A DNA stretch of 64,000 nt, taken from positions 1 through 64,000 of IMG/VR virus record IMGVR_UViG_3300028299_000003; one strand, given 5' to 3'. The stretch is from a virus. Under the pieces are notes generated by a model, which worked only from the letters and a program-made list of their open reading frames with translations, made no database searches and was not told the DNA's origin. This document shows positions 716 to 23,465 of the stretch, one piece after another. Position numbers and translations under genes: made by a program. The stretch's first letter is position 1. Each line of letters opens with the position of its first letter.

Positions 716-1456
716 TTATTCCTCCTTGTTTTTAATTTTTATTAATCCTTTTTCTATATCTCTAACTAATGAAGCGTTTTCAAATTTTTGTTTTTTAATA
801 AGATAACATTTTAATTCATATACTTTTTCAATCGCTGTGTCAAATAATTCATTCTCCTTATCCTTCTTTTCAGTATGAAATGGTATTTCCCATTGACCAT
901 CAACACAATATTGATTTAATTTTTCATCATATGTAATATTTTTTCCATCCAATCTTATACTACCAAATTCTTTTCCGTGTAGTGACCCTTTACCAGAACG
1001 AACATAATAGAAATCGGATTCATCTGTCTCACTTATTTTTGACAAAATTTCATTTGTTTTATCATCATAAAATTTTATATCAACCATATACGCTTCTCCA
1101 CCTATTAAAGATGTCATTTTATCAAAGATAGTTGTTTTCAATTGAAATCTCAAATTTTTTATGAATTTATCAAATTTTTCAAATTCAATATTATCTAAAG
1201 TTTTTTTGTCAAAATAATATTTAGGAATAACATTATAAATATTTTCCATAATAATTTGATTACCAGATATCCATTCATTTATTAATTCTTTAGCTTTTTT
1301 ATAGTCCATAATCTTATGTAATTCATCAACATTATGTCTGAACTTTTCATTAATAGGTAAAATAAAATCAAAATATTTATTATCACGTTCTTGAACAACA
1401 ATATTTTTTATTGTGTCAATAATTTTTTGTGGGTTTATTTTTTCCATTGTTTTCAT
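716..1456 (-). CDS. Hypothetical protein with C-terminal UVR-like motif
   Basis: C-terminal KKQKFENASLVRDIEK resembles the UvrB/UvrC coiled-coil motif. Confidence 0.55.
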   Translation of the reverse strand: MKTMEKINPQKIIDTIKNIVVQERDNKYFDFILPINEKFRHNVDELHKIMDYKKAKELINEWISGNQIIMENIYNVIPKYYFDKKTLDNIEFEKFDKFIKNLRFQLKTTIFDKMTSLIGGEAYMVDIKFYDDKTNEILSKISETDESDFYYVRSGKGSLHGKEFGSIRLDGKNITYDEKLNQYCVDGQWEIPFHTEKKDKENELFDTAIEKVYELKCYLIKKQKFENASLVRDIEKGLIKIKNKEE

Positions 1457-1462
1457 AATTAT

Positions 1463-2368
1463 TTATTTATTTTTTACATTTATTCCAATATACTCATATT
1501 CTTTACCATATATTTTAAAGTTATTATCATATAAAGATATATTATTTTTATTATTTGTAGAATCAAAAATTACACGACCACCCTTAGAAATAATAAAATC
1601 CTTATTACTATTAACAAATCTTCTCAATAATTCCTTATCAGAAATACTATAGTTCTTTGGTGGTATCACAGTACCTTTTATTTTATTTACCTTAATTAAC
1701 TCTATTTTATCTCTGAATTTTTCATTAACAATTTCATATTCAAATTGATCATTTGTTATACAAACATCAGATATGGTATTCGCTGTTTTTACAAAAAATG
1801 GGATAAAACAATAAGTGTTATAATTTCCAACTATATCCGCGATATAATCATCTACTGTCTTTTGTTCATTTTCCATAATCCTATATAATGTGTGTATCAT
1901 TTTCTTATTTAGTATAAACGCGAATGCCCCGAAATTTTTATAACTTTTATAAACATATGTTTTTACCATCTTTGGTTCAGGACATCCATGAAAATGACAA
2001 CCTAAGTACATTATATCCCAGTTTTTTGGCACAACATTTGAATAATAATCAAATCTTTCTTTAAAATCAGAACAAAATATTATATCATCTTCAAATACAC
2101 ATATTCTATCATAATCATTATCAATTGCGTCTTTTAAAACCGAACGATGACTTCTCAACGCTCCCTGTGCTCCTTGATTTTGTTTACCTAGATCTGGGTG
2201 GTTTATTTTTAATTCCTCTTCTGGGATTGTCATTCCATCAATCGCTGAAAATCTATAAGATTCAATATCAAATCTTTTAAATTCATCCACCATAAGATCC
2301 CATCTATCAGTTCTCCTATCTAAATTTATACAGTAAATTTTATCAACAAAATCGTTTATATTAGTCAT
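1463..2368 (-). CDS. Glycosyltransferase family 25 with extra C-terminal domain
   Basis: YCINLDRRTDRW, FSAIDG, GALRSH and VFEDD motifs. Confidence 0.85.
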   Translation of the reverse strand: MTNINDFVDKIYCINLDRRTDRWDLMVDEFKRFDIESYRFSAIDGMTIPEEELKINHPDLGKQNQGAQGALRSHRSVLKDAIDNDYDRICVFEDDIIFCSDFKERFDYYSNVVPKNWDIMYLGCHFHGCPEPKMVKTYVYKSYKNFGAFAFILNKKMIHTLYRIMENEQKTVDDYIADIVGNYNTYCFIPFFVKTANTISDVCITNDQFEYEIVNEKFRDKIELIKVNKIKGTVIPPKNYSISDKELLRRFVNSNKDFIISKGGRVIFDSTNNKNNISLYDNNFKIYGKEYEYIGINVKNK

Positions 2369-3098
2369 TCAAATTAATTAATTTTTTATATTTATCCTTT
2401 TTCCTAATTTCTAATTCTGTCTTATATTGAAGATCTCTTTGACTATTATCAGAAATTGGGTTGTCTAAGTTGTATATATATAAAACTTCAGGGACATACA
2501 AACTATGGTATCCCGACATTTCTAACATAGGAAATTGAAACGCTAAATCCCAGGTTATTTTTAAGTAATCCCCATTATCATCTTTAAGATCATCTTCATT
2601 TATTCTTAAAAATAGTTCCCTTCTAAATGTTCTCAAGTGTGTAGCTAACCATTCTATTTCTCTAAATTTATTTTCTTTTATTTCATTTTGTGTATAACTT
2701 CTAAGATGATTTGGTTTTTTACCATTTGATTCATATGATCCATAAGTTATCCAAACACTTGAATTGTAGATATTGTTAAGATAATTAAGAACATTGTTAT
2801 TTTTTAATTTATCATCACCATCTAATGTAATGCATATTGAATTTTCTTTTGATAATACAACACCATTTCTTATATTATATAGACCATACATTCTTTTTTC
2901 ATTTCTTATTATTTTAAGATTTTTTATATTTTTATAATTATTTAAAACAAATTCATAAGATCCATCTGTTGAAATATCATCTATAAATATAATTTCAAAA
3001 TTATCATAATTTTGATTAATAGCACTTTCAATTGAATCTTTTATCCATTGAATATTATTATATGATGGTATTATTATAGTAAAATGATTATTCATCAC
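2361..3098 (-). CDS. Glycosyltransferase family 2
   Basis: IIIPSYN, IDDISTDGS and LDGDD (DxD) motifs. Confidence 0.88.
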   Translation of the reverse strand: MMNNHFTIIIPSYNNIQWIKDSIESAINQNYDNFEIIFIDDISTDGSYEFVLNNYKNIKNLKIIRNEKRMYGLYNIRNGVVLSKENSICITLDGDDKLKNNNVLNYLNNIYNSSVWITYGSYESNGKKPNHLRSYTQNEIKENKFREIEWLATHLRTFRRELFLRINEDDLKDDNGDYLKITWDLAFQFPMLEMSGYHSLYVPEVLYIYNLDNPISDNSQRDLQYKTELEIRKKDKYKKLINLND

Positions 3099-4284
3099 TT
3101 AATATTTTTTTGTACATTTCTCTTCTTTTATTATTAACAACATCCATTTCATATCTATCAACAACTTTTTCATATAGTTTTTCACCCATATCTATTATCG
3201 CTGATGGATTTTCATGAAACCATTTCATTTTCTCATACCACATATTTGGTTTTGATTCATCAATCAAAAATCCATCTACACCATCCTCAATATCAATTGT
3301 ATATGGGCCATAATTACTCGCGATTATTGGGCATTTGTATATTCCCGCTTCTATTACTTTTAGTTGACTTTTATAATAGTTAAATAAACTATTATTTTTT
3401 AATGGTGACAACACAACATCCGCTTCGTGGTACATTGTACCATATGTTAATATTGGTTTTGTCCATCTTCTTTGATAAAATTCTTGTCTGAATTCTTCAA
3501 CTATACCATAGTTTTCATCACTAAATGTATTTAGATATTGTCTATGTTGCTCGTTTTTTAACCATTTACCACCATTTGTGAAAATATGTTCAAAGAATGA
3601 CCATTGATTTGATTTTGGATCACTTTTTATTATACCCTTTGGTGTCCTAACTCTTAGGTCAAAACCACATAAATATAATTGACAATCTTCTAAAAAGTCT
3701 TTATCAAACATTTCAAATGATTTTTTCATTAACCTAAGATCAGGCATATGACTTATACCACCACCCCAAAGAAATCTTATTTTATCTGAAGGTATTTTAT
3801 TTTCAACTCTCCACTGATATTCATCCTTGTTCAACGCGTTCTCCATAACAAAAACATTTTTATTTAATTCCTCAATTCTTTTCGCGAAAAGAGGTGTTGT
3901 TGTAGTTACATAATGAGCTGATTTTATCAGCCCTTCCATCATTTGTTGAGCGTTAGATTTTTTCCATCCTGAATAATTCAAATGTGAACTACTTAATATC
4001 CAATAGTCATCTATATCCCATACTATTCTTATATTATATTTATTTACAATTTCTTCAAACGCTTTACCATATTCTGGTTTACTGAAATTAATAACCTTAT
4101 TGTAAAATACAATGTTAAAATTACTCAAATATCTTTCATCTGCTAAGTTTAATGTATGATCGCTCAACATTCTTATTTCTACATCAATATCATCATACAT
4201 CATATGACTATGTGGATTTAGTATGCGATAGTAGCCAATACCATCTACATCGGCTGTTAGAGCTAGAATTTTCGGTTTTATCAT
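3088..4284 (-). CDS. GT-B fold (family 4-like) glycosyltransferase
   Basis: GYYR..P, WDIDD, and KSQLKVIEAG..PIIAS..PY...GVDGFL motifs. Confidence 0.8.
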   Translation of the reverse strand: MIKPKILALTADVDGIGYYRILNPHSHMMYDDIDVEIRMLSDHTLNLADERYLSNFNIVFYNKVINFSKPEYGKAFEEIVNKYNIRIVWDIDDYWILSSSHLNYSGWKKSNAQQMMEGLIKSAHYVTTTTPLFAKRIEELNKNVFVMENALNKDEYQWRVENKIPSDKIRFLWGGGISHMPDLRLMKKSFEMFDKDFLEDCQLYLCGFDLRVRTPKGIIKSDPKSNQWSFFEHIFTNGGKWLKNEQHRQYLNTFSDENYGIVEEFRQEFYQRRWTKPILTYGTMYHEADVVLSPLKNNSLFNYYKSQLKVIEAGIYKCPIIASNYGPYTIDIEDGVDGFLIDESKPNMWYEKMKWFHENPSAIIDMGEKLYEKVVDRYEMDVVNNKRREMYKKILSDE

Positions 4285-4372
4285 TTAACTTAATTATTTT
4301 TTATATTTTAATTGAAAAATTCATAAAAGTTTTTTTTAATATATAACAATAGATATAAAAATTAATATATAG

Positions 4373-4729
4373 ATGAAAGATTACTTAAATTTTATGAATG
4401 AAAATATGGAAACTAGTGGTTATAACTTATACATAGAAACAGATGAATCATTGTTTGATGAGAATTGGGATATATCAATAAATATATCAGACATTTGGAA
4501 ACCATATGAGGAACAAGAAATAGATTTGAAAAAATTTGTCCATAGATATAAATTAAGAATAAACGACCATAAGAATGAAATTATAGATATGAAAGGTGCT
4601 GATTCATGGAATGAGTTAGCTGGTATATTAAATGAATTCAATGTTTTTGATAATGAATCATCCCTTCACAAGTTTGATGAGATATATGACTGGGCGGATA
4701 AAAACTCAGTAGAAATGAACTGCCGCTAA
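4373..4729 (+). CDS. Hypothetical protein; last codons supplied by the IS right end
   Basis: ORF after a TATATA motif; the reading frame enters the IS right end at 4716. Confidence 0.6.
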   Translation: MKDYLNFMNENMETSGYNLYIETDESLFDENWDISINISDIWKPYEEQEIDLKKFVHRYKLRINDHKNEIIDMKGADSWNELAGILNEFNVFDNESSLHKFDEIYDWADKNSVEMNCR

Positions 4730-5944
4730 ATTAAAGATTTAGCCAACTTCTACGCCACAAGCACAATGTAACCATTCACTTTGAGTGACGCTGGGTTGGT
4801 TCCTCAACCCGAAATTTCTTATATTTATAGCAGCATTGATGTCCCTGTCGTGTATAGAACCACATTTTTTACAGGTCCATTCTCTATCATTTAAAGTTAA
4901 ATCCTTATTGATTGTTCCACAAACATTACAAGTTTTTGATGAAGGATCAAATCTACCAATCACACTTAAATTTTTACCATACCAATCACATTTGTATTCA
5001 ACCATAGATTTAAATTCAGACCACCCCATATCTAAAATGGCTTTATTCAATTCTGATTTTGCTGATTGACCATTAGGTATATATTTTCCATTTTCGTCTT
5101 GCTTTGGCTTACATCTTTTAACCATACCAGAGACATTTAAATCTTCCATACAGATTGTATCATAATTATCAACCAAGTATCGGGAAATTTTATGTAAATA
5201 ATCCTGTCTTTGATTTCTAATGTGTTCGTGTAAAAGGGCAATAACCATTTTTTGTTTTTTGTAGTGATTGGAATCCTTTGTTTTTCTTGCTAAGGATCGC
5301 TGCTCTATCCTTAGTTCATTCATAGCAGATTTAAAGAAATCGTGGTTCTTGAATTTCATTCCATCTGAAGTTATTACAAAATCTTTTATACCTAAATCTA
5401 AACCAACTGATGTTTTAAACATTATAGGTTTCTTTTCAGGTTTTAATTCGCTAGTATCAACTAGTATAGACACATAATATTTGTTAGTAATTGATCTTGA
5501 TACGGTTATAGTTTTTATTTCACCTTTAAACTCTCTATGTAAATCTATGTCTATATATCGTAATTTGGGTAAAAAAATTTGTTTTTTATTCTCACTAAAA
5601 AATACACCTTGAGGTAATTGAAATGACTGCTTCCCATATCTGTTTTTAAATTTAGGAAAGCCAGCACCATTAAAAAAATTATGATAGGCATTATCTAAAT
5701 TGCGAGTAGCCATCTGTAATGCCTGTGATGGACTTTCTTTTAACCAAGGAGCATCTGTATTTTTTAATTCGGTTATTTGTTTATTTAAATCAAAGCAATT
5801 TATGTTTTTCTTATTGCCAGTATAGTTCATTATTTTTGTTTCTAAACCAAGGTTATAGACAAATCTAACCTGACCAAAAATCTTTGATAGGTATTCTTTT
5901 TGGTCCTGATTGGGATATATTCTATATTTATATGCTTTTAACAT
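4716..5944 (-). mobile_element. IS200/IS605-family element carrying only tnpB; right end and omega-RNA region at ~4716-4810
   Basis: On the - strand, the subterminal hairpin GCTAAAT-CTTTA-ATTTAGC followed by GGCAGTTCA is a typical right end; no tnpA or clear left-end hairpin seen. Confidence 0.7.
4739..5944 (-). CDS. tnpB: RNA-guided endonuclease TnpB
   Basis: N-terminal KAYKYRIYPN HTH; RuvC motifs GLDLG, MEDL and DRDINAAINI; CxxC..CxxC zinc finger; catalytic D-E-D intact. Confidence 0.93.
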   Translation of the reverse strand: MLKAYKYRIYPNQDQKEYLSKIFGQVRFVYNLGLETKIMNYTGNKKNINCFDLNKQITELKNTDAPWLKESPSQALQMATRNLDNAYHNFFNGAGFPKFKNRYGKQSFQLPQGVFFSENKKQIFLPKLRYIDIDLHREFKGEIKTITVSRSITNKYYVSILVDTSELKPEKKPIMFKTSVGLDLGIKDFVITSDGMKFKNHDFFKSAMNELRIEQRSLARKTKDSNHYKKQKMVIALLHEHIRNQRQDYLHKISRYLVDNYDTICMEDLNVSGMVKRCKPKQDENGKYIPNGQSAKSELNKAILDMGWSEFKSMVEYKCDWYGKNLSVIGRFDPSSKTCNVCGTINKDLTLNDREWTCKKCGSIHDRDINAAINIRNFGLRNQPSVTQSEWLHCACGVEVG

Positions 5945-10721: not shown

Positions 10722-11882
10722 ATGGGTGGTCATGCTTTAGATAAATTAGGTATAAAAACAGAACGAAAATCAACAAAAGAACTTTATATAATATTTGATA
10801 AATTAAATAGATATTTTAGTAAATTTGACACTACTATACCAAGATTTTATAGAAATAAGAAAACACATGGTGATTTAGATATTTTGATTAAAGTTTCTAG
10901 TAATGAAATAATATATAATATTGTTAAAGATAGAATAAATCCCGATGGATTAATAGTTAATGATAATATTATAACATTTGATTATGATAATTGTCAAGTA
11001 GATTTAATTTGTATAAAAGAAGATATCTGGGAATCAGCGAAAATCTATTATTTATATGATCCTTTACCAAATCTTTTTGGCAAGACAGCTCATGGATTTG
11101 GTTTAAGATTTGGAATGGATGGATTATTTTATAAATTTATAGGAAAAGGTGGAACGAATACTCATGTGATTAAATTAACAACAAATCCTAGAAAAATATT
11201 TGAGTTTCTAGGTTTTGATTATGATAGATTTGAAGAAGGGTTTGATAATGTTACTGATATTTATGAATTCATAGTAAATGGAAAATTTTATGATAAAGAA
11301 ATGTTTAAACCAGAGAATTTAATCGCGGTTGATAGAAAAAGAAGTATGAATAGACCATCATATCGTGCTTTTTTAGAATATTCAAAATCAACAACGTCAA
11401 ATTTCACATTTGATAAAAATAAAAATGTTTATATAGATTATATTGATGAAAATTTTCCAGGGTTTAAAGAAAAATTAAATGTTTATATAGAACGGGATAA
11501 TATGATAGATCCTAGAAAAAAATTCAGGGAAGCGATATCAAATCACAAACCAGGAAAATTACTTGGAACAATTATCGGATATTATACAAAATCTAAAGAT
11601 GATTTTAATAAATTTATTATAGAAAGTGATATTGAGGCAATAAAAAAAGATTTTGATAACTTCTATATAGGATTCAATAAAAATGAAAATCTTTTTCTAA
11701 AGAAAATAACTGATTATGAAACATTTAAAATGACAGTTAAAAATTATGATATAACAAATCATAATTCCATATCTAATTATGACAGCAGGCAATCTAAAGA
11801 AATTCCATGGGAAGATGTATTTATTAAACCAAAAAATAGTGATAGATATATAAAACCATATGAGAAAGGAAAATTATTTTAA
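10722..11882 (+). CDS. Pol-beta/PolX-fold nucleotidyltransferase-like protein
   Basis: HGDLDIL (DxD), QVDLI third Asp, GLRFGMDGL and IFEFLG motifs. Confidence 0.65.
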   Translation: MGGHALDKLGIKTERKSTKELYIIFDKLNRYFSKFDTTIPRFYRNKKTHGDLDILIKVSSNEIIYNIVKDRINPDGLIVNDNIITFDYDNCQVDLICIKEDIWESAKIYYLYDPLPNLFGKTAHGFGLRFGMDGLFYKFIGKGGTNTHVIKLTTNPRKIFEFLGFDYDRFEEGFDNVTDIYEFIVNGKFYDKEMFKPENLIAVDRKRSMNRPSYRAFLEYSKSTTSNFTFDKNKNVYIDYIDENFPGFKEKLNVYIERDNMIDPRKKFREAISNHKPGKLLGTIIGYYTKSKDDFNKFIIESDIEAIKKDFDNFYIGFNKNENLFLKKITDYETFKMTVKNYDITNHNSISNYDSRQSKEIPWEDVFIKPKNSDRYIKPYEKGKLF

Positions 11883-12358: not shown

Positions 12359-12402
12359 GAAAAGGAATGGATTTAATGGTCTAACCAAATCCATTCCTTT
12401 TC
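12359..12402. terminator. Intrinsic terminator closing the tRNA-Glu-like array
   Basis: gaaaaggaatggattt...aaatccattccttttc long inverted repeat just 3' of the last tRNA-like gene. Confidence 0.7.
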
Positions 12403-12406
12403 AATG

Positions 12407-12475
12407 TAGCCCTTGTGTGAATCGAACACCACTTATCGGGAACCCCCGAAGTCCTATCCAATAGACGAAAGGGCC
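12407..12475 (-). ncRNA. tRNA-Glu-derived RNA with 4-nt anticodon loop and bulged T-stem
   Basis: GGCCCTT TC GTCT..GGAC T TCGGG-GGTT-CCCGA TAA GT(G)GTG-TTCGATT-CACAC AAGGGCT A. Confidence 0.75.
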
Positions 12476-12493: not shown

Positions 12494-12592
12494 TCGTCAT
12501 TATGGGATTTAAACCCATATTCCCTTTCGGGAATCCCTCTAAAGAGGGATTACTCTGCTTCGCAGGAGTCCTGTCTTTTGGACGAAATGACA
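12494..12592 (-). ncRNA. tRNA-Glu-derived RNA with tiny anticodon hairpin and two extra arms
   Basis: TGTCATT/AATGACG acceptor; GTCC/GGAC D-stem; CTGC-GAA-GCAG; ATCCCTC-TTTA-GAGGGAT; TCCC-GAAA-GGGA; ATGGG-TTTAAAT-CCCAT T-arm. Confidence 0.65.
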
Positions 12593-12637
12593 GAACCTTT
12601 TCTCATTTTTTAAAATCTTAATAAAAGATAAAAATAG

Positions 12638-12726
12638 TAGTCCTAGAGGGATTCGAACCCCCGTTACCAAGAAAACCTTGGCGTCCTTATCCACTTTAAA
12701 GTGGAGTTCCGTTAGACGATAGGACC
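12638..12726 (-). ncRNA. tRNA-Glu-derived RNA with 5-nt anticodon loop and a hairpin in the D-loop
   Basis: GGTCCTA/TAGGACT acceptor; D-loop insert TCCAC-TTTAAA-GTGGA; CCAAG-GTTTT-CTTGG; normal TTCGAAT T-loop. Confidence 0.78.
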
Positions 12727-12732
12727 GTTTTG

Positions 12733-12819
12733 TAGCCCCTGTGGGACTCGAACCTCACATTCCTAGGACAATACCTAGGGTCCTGCACATCGGACGATGA
12801 TCCGTTAGACGAAAGGGCC
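12733..12819 (-). ncRNA. tRNA-Glu-derived RNA with 6-nt anticodon loop, D-loop hairpin and bulged T-stem
   Basis: GGCCCTT/AGGGGCT acceptor; D-loop insert CATCG-TC-CGATG; CTAGG-TATTGT-CCTAG; GTG(A)GG-TTCGAGT-CCCAC. Confidence 0.75.
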
Positions 12820-12864: not shown

Positions 12865-12895
12865 CAAAGGTACATTGTTTTTTTGACAAAACAAA
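12865..12895 (-). promoter_or_regulatory. Bacteroidota sigmaA-type promoter followed by a boxA-like site
   Basis: TTTG-N19-TACCTTTG; GTTCTTTGA at 12851-12859. Confidence 0.65.
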
Positions 12896-12919
12896 ATTTT
12901 TCTTTGTTTTTTTTTTATG

Positions 12920-12994
12920 TCACCCGTAGGGGATTCGAACCCCTGATTTCAAGGATGAAAACCTTGCGTCCTAGACCGACTAGACGAACGGGCG
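12920..12994 (-). tRNA. tRNA-Glu(UUC)
   Basis: Canonical cloverleaf, CAAGG-TT TTC AT-CCTTG. Confidence 0.95.
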
Positions 12995-13001
12995 TATTTT
13001 G

Positions 13002-13156
13002 TAGTCCTAGGGGGATTCGAGCCCCCATGACCAAGAAAACCTTGGCGTCCTTATCACACAATCTGGATTTGAACCATAATTCCTCTATTCTATTATATAA
13101 GAGGGTGTTTCCTTTTGTTACACTATTTGTGTGAGTTCCGTTTAGACGATAGGACC
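13002..13156 (-). ncRNA. tRNA-Glu-derived RNA with a second cloverleaf (13054-13134) nested in its D-loop
   Basis: Outer part nearly identical to 12638-12726; inner part TCACACAA/TTGTGTGA, GTGT/ACAC, CCTCT/AGAGG, TGG-TTCAAAT-CCA. Confidence 0.75.
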
Positions 13157-13222
13157 TGAAATCATATATAAGATGATTTCGTATTTTTAATATTTTCAAA
13201 TTTTCAATGAACGATTACAATA

Positions 13223-13279: not shown

Positions 13280-14185
13280 TGGAATGAGACTACTTCCACT
13301 TCTGACTGATACCTTCATTGTATTATCCCTTTGACTCCCATCAGAGGGTTCTCAATTTGTCCACATCCACCAGGGATGTCTATCAGCGACGCTGCCGTTT
13401 TATAGTTGGTGACTCAACTTTTACCATCAATCATATTCAACTTTCCGAATACCCTCTGCTTTCGGGGCAGTTCGTGGCCGCTAGACCACTAGGTGCATCT
13501 TTCAATCAAATTCATCCGTCTTGGGAACTTCAGAACTCTCGGTTCACCCGTAGGTGCTAAGAATTAAGCGACTTTCAGATTGATGTTGAGTGGGCCTTTC
13601 CATTTGATAACAAAATGCAGGAATTGAACCTACGTTTTTTATTTAAGCGATAAATGCCTTACCACTAGGCAAATTTTGTTAGTCCACCAAGAAGTGCCCA
13701 CTCAGCTGTTCTATATCCTTTTGAGATATAAAATTCAACACTTCTCATGCGTTTCGGGCTACCGACCCTACTGTGCGGTTCTTCAAGAATCCTGACCCCT
13801 CGTTCTACCAAGGAATCATTCACCTCTGGAACTATTAGATAGCCATCACGTTGGTCTGCTTTGACAGTCTAATCACTCCTTATCCAATCAGATGTATCAA
13901 TCGGCTGACGAATGGCGTTGGGTGTCACCCCATATTAGAGAAGCTCCTTACCCATTGCCGTGACAATGGGGGCTTACCTCTCGTATTCTTCCCACAGAAC
14001 CATAACCGATTTTCCACCTTAGTTCCACCGAAGTGAAACCCGCCACTGGGATGCGTTAGGATGAAGTTTGCTTGGATGAACTACCCGAAAGTAGCAGGAG
14101 ATTGTGAACATTTACTCCTCTTTTACACCTTACGATGTATTATCCTTTATCCCCCGAAGGGGAAAACTTCCCAAACAAAGTTAAT
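13280..14185 (-). ncRNA. Large structured ncRNA, probably GOLLD-like (ends approximate)
   Basis: ~900 nt, markedly GC-richer than the flanks, no credible ORF; several UUCG/GNRA-capped hairpins on the - strand; own promoter; lies between tRNA genes; 3' end GTGGAT..ATAATAC..AAGG..GTAGTCTCA recalls GOLLD (from memory, not searched). Confidence 0.65.
13609..13680 (-). other. tRNA-like domain (CUU loop, G at position 33) embedded in the large ncRNA
   Basis: ACAAAAT TT GCCT-AGTGGTA-AGGC A TTTAT-CGCTTAA-ATAAA AAAC GTAGG-TTCAATT-CCTGC ATTTTGT; enclosed by the TGAGTGGGC/GCCCACTCA helix. Confidence 0.7.
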
Positions 14186-14567: not shown

Positions 14568-14655
14568 TGCTCCAGATAGGATTCGAACCTATAAGCCTCA
14601 TTATGGCGGTGATTCCTGAGACCACTGTGTTTACCTTGGTTTTCACCACTGGAGC
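14568..14655 (-). tRNA. tRNA-Leu(CAG)
   Basis: GTGGT-CT CAG GA-ATCAC, long variable arm, A73. Confidence 0.9.
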
Positions 14656-16084: not shown

Positions 16085-16393
16085 CTAATTTTCATTTTCT
16101 TTTTTTCCTTTCTTACATATAGGACATACTACAACTTGTTGTAAGGTTATGGAATCTATATCTACAATAATATAACCTTTATTATTACAATTTGCACATC
16201 TAAATTTGTTATATTTACACATAACAATATTCATTTCTTCTTTATAACTAGGAATGTGTCTATTATCACATGCTCTGTCACCAATCATACCAAATCCAAA
16301 ACATTTTTTAACATCATTTTTAGATAGAGTACACACTCTACAAATTCCATTAATTCGTTCTTCTTGGGTATGAGGTTTCATTTCATTCATCAA
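16085..16393 (-). CDS. Cys-rich hypothetical protein
   Basis: CANCNNKG...CPIC. Confidence 0.55.
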   Translation of the reverse strand: MMNEMKPHTQEERINGICRVCTLSKNDVKKCFGFGMIGDRACDNRHIPSYKEEMNIVMCKYNKFRCANCNNKGYIIVDIDSITLQQVVVCPICKKGKKENEN

Positions 16394-17156
16394 TATATTT
16401 TTTTAACTTTTCAAATTCATTTTCAACAAATTCATTATTCTCTCTACCCATATCCTTTATTACATATGGAATATATCCACAGTTTTTAATTTCTTTTATT
16501 TTAATTCTATCTCTATTTTTCACTTGTTTAATTGAATGTTTTTCTTTTATTTTTTCATAATGCCATTTTCCATTCCACAATATCGCTATTTTATAATCTT
16601 CTATTATTATATCAGCGTCCCATCCATTAAAAATTGATTCATTAGTTTTAATATTATTAAAATATTCTTTACATAATTCAGAAAAATATATTTCATTTTT
16701 ACTTCTTCTATTCTGATTTAGAACTGAGGCTCTACCACCCTTTATTGCTTTATCTATATTATTTTTATTTGAATATGTTATAGAACACTTGTTAGAACAA
16801 AAAATTCTATTTTCAGTTATTCTATGCTCAAATATTTTATTACAATATTTACAAATTGTACTTATTCTTTTAATATGATTTCTACCAATCAATGACTCAC
16901 TTTTCTTTTTCTTATCATCATCATCCCAATCTCTACTATTGGCACAACTTCTAGAACAATAATATTTTTCTTTTTTAGGAAAAAGTTTTTCTCTTTCCTC
17001 TATTTCAAATTCCTTTTTACAATTATTACAAGTAACTATAAATTTTTTGAATTCACCATACTTTTTATTAACATATCCACCTTGGTGTATATTTTGACAA
17101 GAAGTATTACAATATTTATTTTTTACAGGTTTTCCACAATTTAAACATTTATTCAT
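16383..17156 (-). CDS. Putative homing endonuclease (Zn-ribbon repeats plus Vsr/PD-(D/E)xK-like domain)
   Basis: CxxC...YCSxxC repeats; SKNE, ADIII..KIAILWNGKWHY...RDRIK. Confidence 0.7.
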   Translation of the reverse strand: MNKCLNCGKPVKNKYCNTSCQNIHQGGYVNKKYGEFKKFIVTCNNCKKEFEIEEREKLFPKKEKYYCSRSCANSRDWDDDDKKKKSESLIGRNHIKRISTICKYCNKIFEHRITENRIFCSNKCSITYSNKNNIDKAIKGGRASVLNQNRRSKNEIYFSELCKEYFNNIKTNESIFNGWDADIIIEDYKIAILWNGKWHYEKIKEKHSIKQVKNRDRIKIKEIKNCGYIPYVIKDMGRENNEFVENEFEKLKKYIDE

Positions 17157-17391: not shown

Positions 17392-17690
17392 CGGCCCGTG
17401 TAGGATTCGAACCTACGACCAACAGATTACACATTATCCATAATTTTCATTACGGGGTGGACTATATCATCATCTCTACTGAGATGTCGGACGCTATTAA
17501 AGGTTTATTGATTGATTTTCTCACCTTTTAGTCTCTGCACCTTCCCAAATACTCTTATAATCTTCTCTGGGCTTGGATCAGGATTGCCATATTAAAGGTT
17601 TCCCTGAGTTCATCCGATTTTCCATATGTGGTCACCCACATACGCTGCAATCTTTACAGTCTGCTGCTCTACCAGCTGAGCTAACGAGCC
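17392..17690 (-). tRNA. tRNA-Asn(GUU), intron-containing
   Basis: Exons 17690-17656 and 17429-17392 join to GCAGA-CT GTT AA-TCTGT; G73. Confidence 0.9.
17430..17655 (-). ncRNA. Group I intron (226 nt, no ORF) between anticodon positions 35 and 36
   Basis: P1 CUGU^AA/UUGCAG with U.G at the splice site; core AATCCTGA, GCAGAGACTA and GATATAGTCC; terminal G. Confidence 0.9.
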
Positions 17691-18969: not shown

Positions 18970-19052
18970 TGACCAAGGTGGGACTCGAACCCACAAGTTC
19001 TGTGAACGATAGGTTCTAAACCTATTATGTTTTCCAATTTCATCACTTGGCC
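18970..19052 (-). tRNA. tRNA-Leu(UAG)
   Basis: ATAGG-TT TAG AA-CCTAT, long variable arm. Confidence 0.92.
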
Positions 19053-19717
19053 TTCTCGTAATTTTTTTTCCATTTTCTTATACTATTATCACTCACTCCG
19101 TATTTTCTTCCTGTTCCTCTATATCCAAATTCTTTTATTTCTTTTAATAATTTATCATAAGATGGTCTTTTTACTTTTCTTTGTTTTAATTTTGAACAAT
19201 CCATACAATATTTACTATTTTCTTGTTTTTTATTTCCACACTCACATTTCTGTTGTGGATTTTTATTTATTTTTGATTTTTGATTTAAACTCTTACAATA
19301 TGTATTTGTTTGAGCGTGACAATTTGGACAAAGTATTTGAATATTATTAAATTCATTATTAAATCTATTGCCATCTATATGATGAATTTCTAATGGTGCA
19401 TCTTTATTATTCCATTCGGTAAGATTACAAATTTCACATTTTTTTTCTTTATATCCATCCATTATTAATTTTTTTCTCAGTGTGTTGCTACTTATTAATG
19501 ACCCGTTAAATAAATATTTAGAAACATGTTTTCTATTATTTGATATTTTTTTACCCTTTAATCCCATATTGCCATTATATTCAATATTCATTTTTTTCAA
19601 ATATCCATTTAATGTTGATTGTCTACATATAAGTTCTTTACAAATGAAAGATTTTGGTTGATTATCATTTATCCATTCTAATATCTCTTCTTTTTTTTCT
19701 AATATATCTTTTCTCAT
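19043..19717 (-). CDS. HNH homing endonuclease
   Basis: CEIC...LEIHHIDGNRFNNEFNNIQILCPNCH; C-terminal HTH; likely start MRKDILEK at 19717; stop lies inside tRNA-Leu(UAG). Confidence 0.85.
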   Translation of the reverse strand: MRKDILEKKEEILEWINDNQPKSFICKELICRQSTLNGYLKKMNIEYNGNMGLKGKKISNNRKHVSKYLFNGSLISSNTLRKKLIMDGYKEKKCEICNLTEWNNKDAPLEIHHIDGNRFNNEFNNIQILCPNCHAQTNTYCKSLNQKSKINKNPQQKCECGNKKQENSKYCMDCSKLKQRKVKRPSYDKLLKEIKEFGYRGTGRKYGVSDNSIRKWKKNYEKAK

Positions 19718-19821
19718 CTTTTTTTTTATTTTATATATTAAAAATAAAAAGTCAAAAATGGTAAACACCATAATTATTTTTATAATATGTATATTATTTT
19801 AATTATTTCAAAGAACTTATG

Positions 19822-22285: not shown

Positions 22286-22545
22286 TAATAAATCAAATCA
22301 GTGAGCCTATAATCTTCTATTTCACCACGTTCGTTTTCACATTTAGCTCTTCGTTTACCATTTTTATCGGTATAAATTTCACGAATTGTTACTCTGTAGA
22401 AAGTCGTCTCATTATCTGTAAATATTCTACATCTACTTCCAATTTTTAATTCATTAACCAATCTTCTAATAGTGATTTTATCACTTATTACTAAAATTGA
22501 AATTATAATTAAAAGACAAATTAAAATTACTAAAAATATTATCAT
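22285..22545 (-). CDS. Membrane-anchored hypothetical protein
   Basis: N-terminal hydrophobic helix. Confidence 0.55.
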   Translation of the reverse strand: MIIFLVILICLLIIISILVISDKITIRRLVNELKIGSRCRIFTDNETTFYRVTIREIYTDKNGKRRAKCENERGEIEDYRLTDLIY

Positions 22546-23465
22546 AATTTACGGTTTTTAATTTCTTTATCCATTTCTTTTTTTACTTTATATACTAAAG
22601 AGTGGCTAAACCCAGTAGTTTTTATTATATCCTTAACATTTTTATCATTTATAAATAATTTATGAATTATTGAATATTTATCTGATTTCATAATTCTATT
22701 ATCTATTATTCTATCCCATTTTCTATTCATTATTGGAAGATTGAGAGATTTTGCTTTATTTTTTATTTTTTCTAATGTTTTAAATTTAAATATTCTAATC
22801 GTAGAACAACCACCTGTTGATAATTTAAAACATTTTTCTTCATCTGTCAAAATTTTATAGAATTCTTCTAATATTTTTTTCCAATTTTTATCACACTTAA
22901 TTTCTATAGATTTACCATTTTTACATATAGACCCATCTCCATCAATGAAACCTATAATTAAACTAAATATTTGATCTTTTCCTAGATTTGGAATTGTTGG
23001 AATATTTTTTGTTTTATTGGTTTTCCAATTAAATATTTCTTTTAATTCTATTACTGTTTGTTTATCACATAATGTATATCTAACAGAATTTAATTTATCA
23101 ACATAAGATGGTTTTAAATTTATACCCAAGTGCTTTTCTATTTTATTAAAATGTTCTTCATCTTTTTTACTTATATTTACTTGAAAATAACAATTCTTAG
23201 ATAGATGACCATCAGCAAGTAAAAAACCAATCCAATAACAAGTAATATTATCATTTAAATTTAATAGTTTTATTAAATTTCTTTTACTCTCATAAAATTC
23301 TCTTTTTATTCCAAAAAGATGTGCCATTTTTTGTATATAATTCCAAGATAAATTTAAATCGTTTTTTATATCTTTATTGCTTTTTTTAGAATAATTTTCT
23401 AACAAATACTCTTTTAAATATTCATTTCTTTCTGTGTTTAAATTTCTTATTTTATAATTAGTCAT
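22542..23465 (-). CDS. Free-standing LAGLIDADG homing endonuclease
   Basis: YWIGFLLADG and IIGFIDGDGS motifs. Confidence 0.85.
   Translation of the reverse strand: MTNYKIRNLNTERNEYLKEYLLENYSKKSNKDIKNDLNLSWNYIQKMAHLFGIKREFYESKRNLIKLLNLNDNITCYWIGFLLADGHLSKNCYFQVNISKKDEEHFNKIEKHLGINLKPSYVDKLNSVRYTLCDKQTVIELKEIFNWKTNKTKNIPTIPNLGKDQIFSLIIGFIDGDGSICKNGKSIEIKCDKNWKKILEEFYKILTDEEKCFKLSTGGCSTIRIFKFKTLEKIKNKAKSLNLPIMNRKWDRIIDNRIMKSDKYSIIHKLFINDKNVKDIIKTTGFSHSLVYKVKKEMDKEIKNRKL

Follow-up and report, generated by a model that had tools for sequence, protein, structure and literature searches.

A tRNA-Glu-like phage RNA with a predicted cloverleaf-shaped branch in its D loop, a member of a family of non-decoding tRNA mimics encoded beside GOLLD

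The stretch of DNA analysed here (hereafter the window) comprises 64,000 nucleotides (nt) and corresponds to the first 64 kb of the 76.6-kb IMG/VR virus record IMGVR_UViG_3300028299_000003, whose completeness is ~11% according to CheckV. The sequencing runs containing this stretch are metagenomes and metatranscriptomes of lake water. The G+C content of the window (~26%) and the partial state of the record are consistent with a fragment of a huge phage. The object of this study is a 155-nt transfer RNA (tRNA)-like gene, gene A, which belongs to a small array of tRNA and tRNA-like genes (A to E) located downstream of an RNA of the GOLLD family. All these genes, GOLLD included, are on the minus strand and are found, from high to low coordinates, in the order GOLLD, A, tRNA-Glu, C, B, E, D and terminator (Table 1). 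Promoters and terminators at the locus are of the bacterial type. The GOLLD match stops at position 13281 and A begins at 13156, so that A is outside the match, 125 nt downstream. The comparisons described below show, as far as gene sequences and predicted folds can tell, that A genuinely belongs to a family of non-decoding tRNA mimics which is carried by phages, is conserved and originates from tRNA-Glu(UUC). Its D loop carries an additional branch of 81 nt which is predicted to fold as a second, inner cloverleaf.

The first-pass annotation had described A as a near copy of gene B in which an 81-nt segment replaces the 16-nt D-loop hairpin, and the alignment of the two genes agrees with this description, in coordinates as well as in sequence. 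A and B are 96% identical over the first 24 nt of A and 93% identical over its last 54 nt, and the 81 nt of A (13134..13054) stand where B has the hairpin TCCAC-TTTAAA-GTGGA. The outer RNA of A displays the acceptor stem GGUCCUA/UAGGACU of 7 base pairs (bp), the D arm GUCU..GG..GGAC and a T arm with a UUCRANY-type loop that are expected of a tRNA. The motif TCGTCT of its outer 5' part is also present in the phage's own tRNA-Glu. In the minimum free energy (MFE) structure the outer D stem loses to a 3-bp alternative, and its forced formation costs only 0.8 kcal/mol. The D loop totals 93 nt. A decoding tRNA has an anticodon loop of 7 nt with U33 and a purine at position 37; the outer loop of A (GUUUU) has 5 nt and its inner loop 13 nt. 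Whole A gives a hybrid partial match of 20.4 bits to the Rfam tRNA model RF00005, under the gathering score of 29 bits, and the paralogue B lies above this score, in an alignment where its D loop has 22 inserted nt and its anticodon loop is shortened. None of the genes A to E was called by ARAGORN with default settings, and no match to an intron family was obtained from Rfam in A at E-values up to 10.

A and B share with the neighbouring tRNA-Glu the D arm UC-GUCU...GGAC, the short variable loop of 3-4 nt and the T arm. The sequence CAAGGTTTTC of the anticodon arm is common to A, B and the neighbouring tRNA-Glu(UUC), the 3' half of the loop being deleted in A and B. The string CAAGGUUUUC, made of the 5' strand of the anticodon stem and of residues U32 to C36, has been kept in A and B from tRNA-Glu, and their anticodon stem is re-registered to CCAAG/CUUGG around the 5-nt loop. 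A and B are evidently descendants of tRNA-Glu(UUC). The genes C and D represent a second subtype, characterized by a 6-nt loop or a GGUU tetraloop and by a single bulged base in the T stem.

The sequence L014 was recovered in a scan with a pattern for tRNA-Glu-like genes that have a long D loop; its contig (G001, 33.7 kb) represents a second phage. This contig contains a GOLLD RNA at 348-806 (172.7 bits) followed downstream by the same types of genes. In both phages the array is adjacent to GOLLD and includes a true tRNA-Glu, and the GOLLD regions of the window and of G001 are 82% identical. The stems of the mimics were compared by direct structural parsing of the sequences, because the MAFFT alignments (of the mimics and of the tRNAs of the window) were inconsistent with the structure. 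A perfect stem of 4-6 bp closed by a loop of 4-6 nt was observed in all eight tRNA-like genes of the two phages, with the tRNA-Glu framework kept. The two true tRNA-Glu genes both have the anticodon loop UUUUCAU. As no mimic has a 7-nt anticodon loop, the mimics cannot decode. The features that they have kept are the 7-bp acceptor stem (with G1-U72 and A73), U8, the D stem GUCU/GGAC, A14, G18G19, A21 and the variable loop of 3-4 nt, to which the A/B type adds a canonical T arm. Since the acceptor stem, D arm, G18G19 and T arm of the tRNA framework are retained, the mimics should fold into the L shape of a tRNA.

The loop sequence of the A/B type drifts (GUUUU, GUUUU, GCUAU, GUUAU) while its length is fixed at 5 nt and its stem is constant. 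Paired changes are found between the stems of paralogues (CCUAGG/CCUAGG, UCGGG/CCCGA, CCAGG/CCUGG), at the T-stem pair 51:63 the G:C of the window corresponds to an A:U of G001, and one C/D copy has undergone a paired change from GUG/CAC to GCG/CGC around the conserved bulge of the T stem. These paired changes and the fixed loop length indicate selection on the predicted structure and not decay. The conserved bulge is not a feature of tRNAs and could serve as a protein contact. In the C/D type (12733-12819 and 12407-12475 in the window; 200-283 and 517-601 in L014), the 5' strand of the T stem contains this single bulged base as GUG-N-GG opposite CCCAC, and as GUG-G-UG opposite CACAC in D. RNAs of the E type are also present in both phages (window ~12497-12596; L169 ~1049-1130; L014 ~421-500). 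Their D arm is GUCC..GGAC and their T-arm loop has 7 or 8 nt; in addition they have a short capped arm, one or two further hairpins capped by GNRA or UUUA, and an unusual or extended acceptor.

The four copies of the A/B type carry D-loop inserts of 0, 16, 39 and 81 nt. Each insert follows G18G19 on the 3' side and is flanked by the linkers AA(C/G) and UAA, and the C-type paralogues have other hairpins at the same site. In tRNAs, the stretch of the D loop 3' of G18G19 points into solvent at the elbow. The four copies show that this stretch tolerates insertions, at least as judged from the genes. The insert is closed by the helix UCCAC/GUGGA in B, by UCACACAA/UUGUGUGA in A and by UCAAC/GUUGA in the 39-nt copy; among the first 5 pairs of this helix, positions 3, 4 and 5 vary on both strands, and these two-sided changes make the closing helix a conserved feature. 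Inside it, the branch of A and the 39-nt insert have in common a hairpin with an AU loop (CCUCU..AGAGG and CCCU..AGGG, respectively) and the string UAUGG. The block TTTGTATTGTAAT precedes both A in the window and the insert-free copy of G001; A and this insert-free gene are therefore positional counterparts. Since the counterpart has no insert and the D-like and T-like arms are unique to A, the inner cloverleaf would be a lineage-specific elaboration of a tolerant site.

Fold prediction reproduces the four-way junction described in the first-pass annotation, with its closing stem, D arm, CCUCU/AGAGG arm and T arm. The MFE structure of the 155-mer (-42.6 kcal/mol, z-score -2.1, 5 of 200 shuffles equally good) is a nested cloverleaf, and the same junction is obtained with the isolated 81-mer (-16.3 kcal/mol, z-score -2.2, 7 of 200 shuffles equally good). 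In the full-length ensemble, the pair probabilities of the four inner helices are 0.90-0.95; when the acceptor stem, short-looped arm and T arm of the outer RNA are included, the means span 0.90-0.96. The T-like stem of the branch contains only 3 Watson-Crick pairs (4 of 5 if it is extended past an A-G mismatch) and the linker that joins the closing helix to the D-like stem has 3 nt in place of two. The thermodynamic signal sits in the closing helix and in the outer scaffold, not in the 65-nt core within the closing helix. It is the placement of the motifs that makes the tRNA likeness of the branch unlikely by chance: GGUUCAAAUCC directly abuts the 3' strand of the closing helix, and an arm UA-GUGU-AAC..GG..A-ACAC comes after its 5' strand. 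The Rfam tRNA model aligns the branch end to end with 15.7 bits and an E-value of 0.41 (4227 families, 93 nt), or ~1e-4 for the tRNA family alone when we divide by the number of families. With lowered thresholds only, ARAGORN detects the branch as a "tRNA-Ser" with a 6-nt intron. We conclude that the branch is probably tRNA-derived or closely tRNA-like, yet degenerate (T stem of 3-4 pairs, 13-nt loop, one extra linker nucleotide). The inner segment is predicted to fold with high pair probabilities; its tRNA shape is not conserved in G001.

No donor tRNA for the branch was found within the contig, the best alignment (z-score 4.1) being with tRNA-Arg(UCG). A second copy of the branch was found neither in the contig nor in the collections searched, and a search with the inner D-arm and T-loop pattern matched only unrelated tRNA families. 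The branch was also considered as a mobile element resembling a miniature inverted-repeat transposable element; this was rejected, there being no second copy and no target duplication, and a related helix being present at the site in B and in the G001 copy. A sigma-70-like match (GTAACA-18-TATAAT, 10 of 12 positions, 13092-13121 on the minus strand) lies inside the branch with its -10 element in the 13-nt loop, which may reflect mere AT richness.

Table 1. Features of the GOLLD-tRNA locus of the window and of the corresponding array of the second phage contig G001.
Feature	Position	Strand	Evidence or remarks
GOLLD RNA	13281..13746	-	Rfam RF02032, 147.4 bits, E-value 1e-40; gathering score 150; upstream of the array
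tRNA-Lys(CUU) inside GOLLD	13680..13608	-	ARAGORN
Gene A, 155-nt tRNA-Glu-derived tRNA-like RNA with nested 81-nt branch	13002..13156	-	Sequence, MFE fold, copy of B, structural parse
A, outer 5' part: acceptor GGUCCUA (13156..13150), U8 C9, D-stem 5' strand GUCU (13147..13144)	13144..13156	-	
A, outer D-loop 5' part AAACGGAAC, with A14 and G18G19	13135..13143	-	Same motif in B and G001 homologues
A, inner cloverleaf-shaped branch	13054..13134	-	Folds; Rfam tRNA 15.7 bits; ARAGORN at relaxed thresholds only
Branch, closing helix of 8 bp, UCACACAA/UUGUGUGA	13134..13127 with 13061..13054	-	
Branch, D-like arm GUGU/ACAC, 11-nt loop containing GG	13123..13105	-	
Branch, CCUCU/AGAGG arm, 13-nt AU loop	13104..13082	-	
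Branch, T-like arm UGG-UUCAAAU-CCA	13076..13064	-	
A, linker UAA (including A21) and outer D-stem 3' strand GGAC	13047..13053	-	
A, collapsed anticodon arm GCCAAG-GUUUU-CUUGGU, 6 bp and 5-nt loop	13030..13046	-	No usable anticodon
A, T arm GGGGG-CUCGAAU-CCCCC, acceptor 3' strand UAGGACU, discriminator A	13002..13026	-	No encoded CCA
True tRNA-Glu(UUC), likely ancestor type of the mimics	12920..12994	-	ARAGORN; Rfam 59.8 bits
Gene C, tRNA-Glu-like; D-loop hairpin, 6-nt "anticodon" loop, bulged T stem	12733..12819	-	
Gene B, 89-nt paralogue of A, 16-nt D-loop hairpin	12638..12726	-	Rfam tRNA 38.3 bits
Gene E, more divergent tRNA-like RNA; GUCC..GGAC D arm, short capped arm, two extra hairpins, T arm	~12497..12596	-	G001 homologues
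Gene D, tRNA-Glu-like; normal D loop, GGUU tetraloop for anticodon loop, bulged T stem	12407..12475	-	
Intrinsic-terminator-like 19-bp hairpin and U tract, end of the array	12359..12402	-	
G001, A/B-type gene, normal 11-nt D loop, no insert	962-1034		First after GOLLD
G001, E type; tRNA-Glu; C type with UUCG-capped D-loop hairpin and "anticodon" arm ending AUUU			Next in the array
G001, A/B-type gene with 39-nt insert	1433-1545		
G001, second E type; C/D type with UUAU tetraloop; tRNA-Met			Last in the array

A wider class of related genes was detected among viral contigs with the pattern TCGTCTAA-N14-44-AGGAC-N16-30-GGTTCGA. About 24 of the 34 matches have full acceptor and T stems and represent tRNA-Glu-like genes with a D-loop hairpin, roughly half of them with non-canonical anticodon loops. 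The normal UUC or CUC loop is kept in L035, L027, L036, L063 and L115, and capped or odd loops are found in L005 (GAGA), L024 (GAUG), L021, L018, L022 and L023. The genes of L063 (1115-1256, minus strand) and L115 (285-426 and 500-796, plus strand) are of the tRNA-Glu(CUC) type, with seven-base CUC-containing anticodon loops and D-loop inserts of ~78-230 nt. In L033 (1555-1700, plus strand) a whole tRNA-like gene with a 10-bp closing stem occupies the anticodon position of a tRNA-Glu-like gene, and in L106 (12806-12944, minus strand) two tRNA bodies are found within one acceptor stem. The search for other D-loop inserts suggested in the first-pass annotation has thus been fruitful, with the 39-nt copy, the C-type hairpins and the hairpins of about two dozen other viral contigs. 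The same pattern gave at least 120 matches in a collection with one genome per prokaryotic species. Among the matches listed, valid stems were observed in 14, mostly Bathyarchaeia tRNAs with D-loop introns or tandem artefacts. The D-loop-hairpin form of bacterial phages looks phage-enriched from this comparison, which is a rough one as the collections differ in size.

The subfamily itself was not extended by the other searches. Exact or degenerate patterns of the anticodon arm gave, in viral contigs, either nothing or G001 and one chance match in a coding sequence, and the scan of a single metagenome gave 12 chance matches in coding regions (e.g. MreB-like). The acceptor and D-arm pattern GGTCCTATCGTCTAA recovered only ordinary tRNAs (mostly tRNA-Glu), chance matches and G001, and the search with a GOLLD block gave one match, L202, probably by chance. 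When the region was compared by blastn with 50,697 phage records, only the tRNA-Glu segment of two uncultured huge phages was matched. The 735-kb huge phage LR756501 matches the true tRNA-Glu only, and its 40-kb neighbourhood contains ordinary tRNAs. A literature search returned no paper describing tRNA-Glu mimics devoid of an anticodon or hairpins in the D loop of phage tRNA-Glu, which is weak evidence of novelty as the coverage was incomplete. Separately, ARAGORN detected a tRNA with a four-base anticodon (gggc) in L190, L191, L192, L195, L197, L198 and L199; this implies an enlarged anticodon loop and possibly a quadruplet-type or otherwise odd tRNA.

In the contigs of three RNA libraries from lakes, GOLLD reaches a depth of 2000-5000 and the D-E-B-C part of the array a depth of 3-6, which is indistinguishable from DNA carry-over. 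A is not covered by these contigs, which speaks neither for nor against its expression. The tRNA embedded in GOLLD remains joined to it at high depth. A second GOLLD variant, ~10% diverged, was observed in the same runs; the segment 13613-13682 is replaced there by a diverged stretch of equal length, and the tRNA module within GOLLD looks exchangeable.

Other features of the window are the following. ARAGORN missed an 88-nt tRNA (14568-14655, minus strand; Rfam 47.2 bits) whose variable arm is long and whose D loop is enlarged. A group I intron (17438-17666, minus strand; Rfam 96 bits) lies between the tRNA-Met and tRNA-Arg of a large tRNA array, and open reading frames (ORFs) related to HNH and LAGLIDADG proteins are found near it (16383-17156, 19043-19771 and 22542-23465). 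The ORF 4739-5944 (minus strand) is of the TnpB/IS605 OrfB type, with OrfB_IS605, Cas12f1-like TNB and HTH domains. No relatives were found for the protein of the ORF 10722-11882, a neighbour of the array. The two ORFs overlapping A (12883-13134 on the plus strand and 12915-13199 on the minus strand) were taken as spurious because both cross tRNA genes.

We favour a reading in which the RNAs of this family are non-decoding tRNA-Glu mimics that act as decoys for a host factor binding tRNA-Glu, A having acquired a lineage-specific expansion derived from a tRNA; in our judgement it has about an even chance of being correct as a whole. The small D-loop hairpin of A would have grown into the 81-nt branch, most simply by the uptake of a degenerate tRNA-derived module inside the hairpin. 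Probably produced alongside the tRNA-Glu of the phage itself, the mimics would be cut from the array transcript by RNase P and 3'-end enzymes and would receive a CCA. Uncleavable or unchargeable, they could then occupy a host factor that binds the body of tRNA-Glu, such as an anticodon nuclease. The nuclease RloC favoured tRNA-Glu when overexpressed (PMC2610378), and phage tRNAs are known to counteract anticodon nucleases (PMC10264068). The branch of A would ride along as an expansion segment or would add a second tRNA-like elbow; most likely it is a passenger expansion derived from a tRNA.

Several observations weigh against this reading. Only two phage contigs, the virus record of the window and G001, carry this subfamily, and the covariation counts come from four to eight related sequences on these two contigs. 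The D-like and T-like arms are present in A only, the inner cloverleaf being without homologue, and the positional counterpart of A in G001 is devoid of insert. The 15.7 bits of the branch are below the Rfam gathering score of 29 bits, and among 2000 dinucleotide shuffles of the 65-nt core, 38% reach an equally good energy, 6% form three hairpins and 2% combine the two. The decoy role is drawn by analogy. Glutamyl-tRNA synthetase normally needs the anticodon of tRNA-Glu. Finally, Pfam scans of 20 ORFs of the window revealed no obvious partner of tRNAs, such as a synthetase, an RNA ligase or a nuclease.

Some of these observations would also be expected if A were neutral: a duplicate of B that the phage could do without, with AT-rich sequence piled up in a tolerant hairpin loop and a cloverleaf that is a chance fold and plays no role. 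The stability of the core, equal to that of shuffles, the sub-threshold tRNA score, the unconserved insert that is missing from the counterpart and has no second copy in the contig or the collections searched, and a sigma-70-like match of a kind common in AT-rich sequence all agree with it. Such an accumulation would not readily explain a perfect GGUUCAAAUCC T-loop motif at the tRNA-correct place, accompanied by a D-like arm with GG, a tRNA alignment that runs from end to end with a single-family E-value of ~1e-4, or the high pair probability of all four helices. Moreover, A has kept an intact outer scaffold in which the stems are perfect, and we regard a neutral A as rather unlikely. The fixed insertion site can alternatively be viewed as that of a display scaffold, with a tRNA-Glu body that carries exchangeable functional modules at its D loop and with the inner tRNA shape of A as functional cargo. 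Inserts of different size and shape at one site with conserved linkers would fit this proposal, as would the many phage tRNA-Glu-like genes with differing D-loop hairpins or long branched inserts (L063, L115), and engineered tRNA scaffolds are said to work alike. However, an insert-free copy of the A/B type is found at the same position in the second phage; the scaffold being conserved without cargo, its display is not required for the function of the scaffold. Beyond one hairpin, no cargo is common to both phages, and a functional cargo in A appears distinctly unlikely to us. What persists of the modular display position put forward in the first-pass annotation is a variable insertion point, from 0 to 81 nt and with other hairpins in the C type; its cargo is dispensable, as illustrated by the counterpart.

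The branch might also be a precursor which RNase P and RNase Z recognise and excise as an ~80-nt RNA, the outer RNA then consisting of two fragments joined through its acceptor and D stems, in the manner of a split tRNA. The 8-bp closing helix would stack on a T-like arm with the canonical loop UUCAAAU, and such a minihelix, an acceptor-type helix on a T arm, is the geometry that RNase P reads. The nested tRNA-like gene of L033 further hints that nesting recurs. The T-like stem of 3 to 4 pairs and the 3-nt spacing of the D-like stem from the closing helix are nevertheless unfavourable to this processing, and the branch is missing from the counterpart gene. Nesting does not imply excision either, as exemplified by the GOLLD-embedded tRNA that stays joined in the RNA contigs, and we consider the precursor improbable. 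There is a slight chance that A acts as a double-tRNA-shaped RNA, in which an uncleavable tRNA-Glu body presents a second elbow and bridges two tRNA-binding sites; these could be those of a multimeric host tRNA nuclease, a synthetase, the ribosome or the GOLLD cage. In that case, phages would use the D loop of tRNA-Glu as a natural scaffold site for RNA modules. An intron of 81 nt, whose splicing would restore a B-like or normal D loop, finds a parallel in the D-loop introns of archaeal tRNAs (the Bathyarchaeia of the genome scan), and a group I intron is present elsewhere in the window. The bulge-helix-bulge of archaeal introns, with two 3-nt bulges staggered over a 4-bp helix, is nonetheless absent, the closing helix consisting of 8 uninterrupted pairs with unpaired AAC and UAA directly opposite. 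A matches no intron family, and an intron of group I or II would need more than 81 nt. In addition, promoters and terminators of the bacterial type and a GOLLD RNA are present at the locus, and the outer RNA has no anticodon to rescue. Splicing is consequently a very improbable explanation.

Clusters of phage tRNA genes have long been known to encode tRNA-like stable RNAs such as species 1 and 2 of T4. The present locus offers an evolutionarily readable example, in which a tRNA-Glu(UUC) would have become a non-decoding mimic by collapse of its anticodon loop, and in which a single solvent-exposed site of the D loop accepts anything from nothing to a tRNA-shaped branch. The mimics adjoin GOLLD, a cage-forming RNA that is very abundant in lake RNA libraries; if they are decoys for tRNA-targeting defences, or partners of GOLLD, two questions, that of the tRNA-like RNAs and that of GOLLD, become connected. 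The nested copy A would provide a natural test of the tolerance of the tRNA elbow and a natural precedent for the engineering of tRNA scaffolds, although on present evidence the nested cloverleaf is a one-off.

When compared with known systems, the family is best described as a variant of the phage tRNA-like stable RNAs, the predicted nested cloverleaf being a single, unconserved instance. The closest known kind is represented by species 1 and 2 of T4 (rnaC and rnaD). Like the mimics, these are non-decoding RNAs encoded in a phage tRNA array, with extra folded domains in place of parts of the tRNA. The fold of rnaC, whose 3' end forms the T arm CCGGG-UUCGAAU-CCCGG beside an acceptor-like stem and which contains long inserted hairpins, resembles that of the mimics by architecture only, as no sequence similarity between the T4 species and the RNAs of the window was detected by blastn. 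Unlike the T4 species, the mimics of the window have kept the entire D arm of tRNA-Glu, G18G19 included; their anticodon stem is short and capped, and their extra domain is in the D loop. With bacterial and phage tRNA-Glu (RF00005), A shares the acceptor stem, the D arm, the variable loop of 3-4 nt, the T arm and CAAGGUUUUC; it differs from them by its 5-nt loop, without U33 or anticodon geometry, and by its 93-nt D loop. The tRNAs embedded in GOLLD (RF02032) offer a complete tRNA shape inside a larger phage RNA at the same locus as A. GOLLD is reported to occur close to islands of phage tRNA genes and to contain tRNAs in its linker in some cases (10.1101/2024.12.08.627333). In contrast to these embedded tRNAs, the host RNA of the branch of A is itself tRNA-like, its site is the D loop, and it is outside the GOLLD match. 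The D-loop introns of archaeal tRNAs (e.g. Bathyarchaeia) also interrupt a tRNA D loop with extra sequence; they differ from A by their bulge-helix-bulge, the locus of A being of the bacterial-phage type and its outer RNA non-decoding. The tRNA scaffold engineered by Ponchon and Dardel in 2007 reportedly carries a foreign folded RNA. In such scaffolds, the tRNA body would lend the insert its processing and its stability, as the body of A could do for its branch. The engineered scaffold replaces the anticodon arm with the foreign RNA, whereas A carries its insert in the D loop and has a capped anticodon arm.

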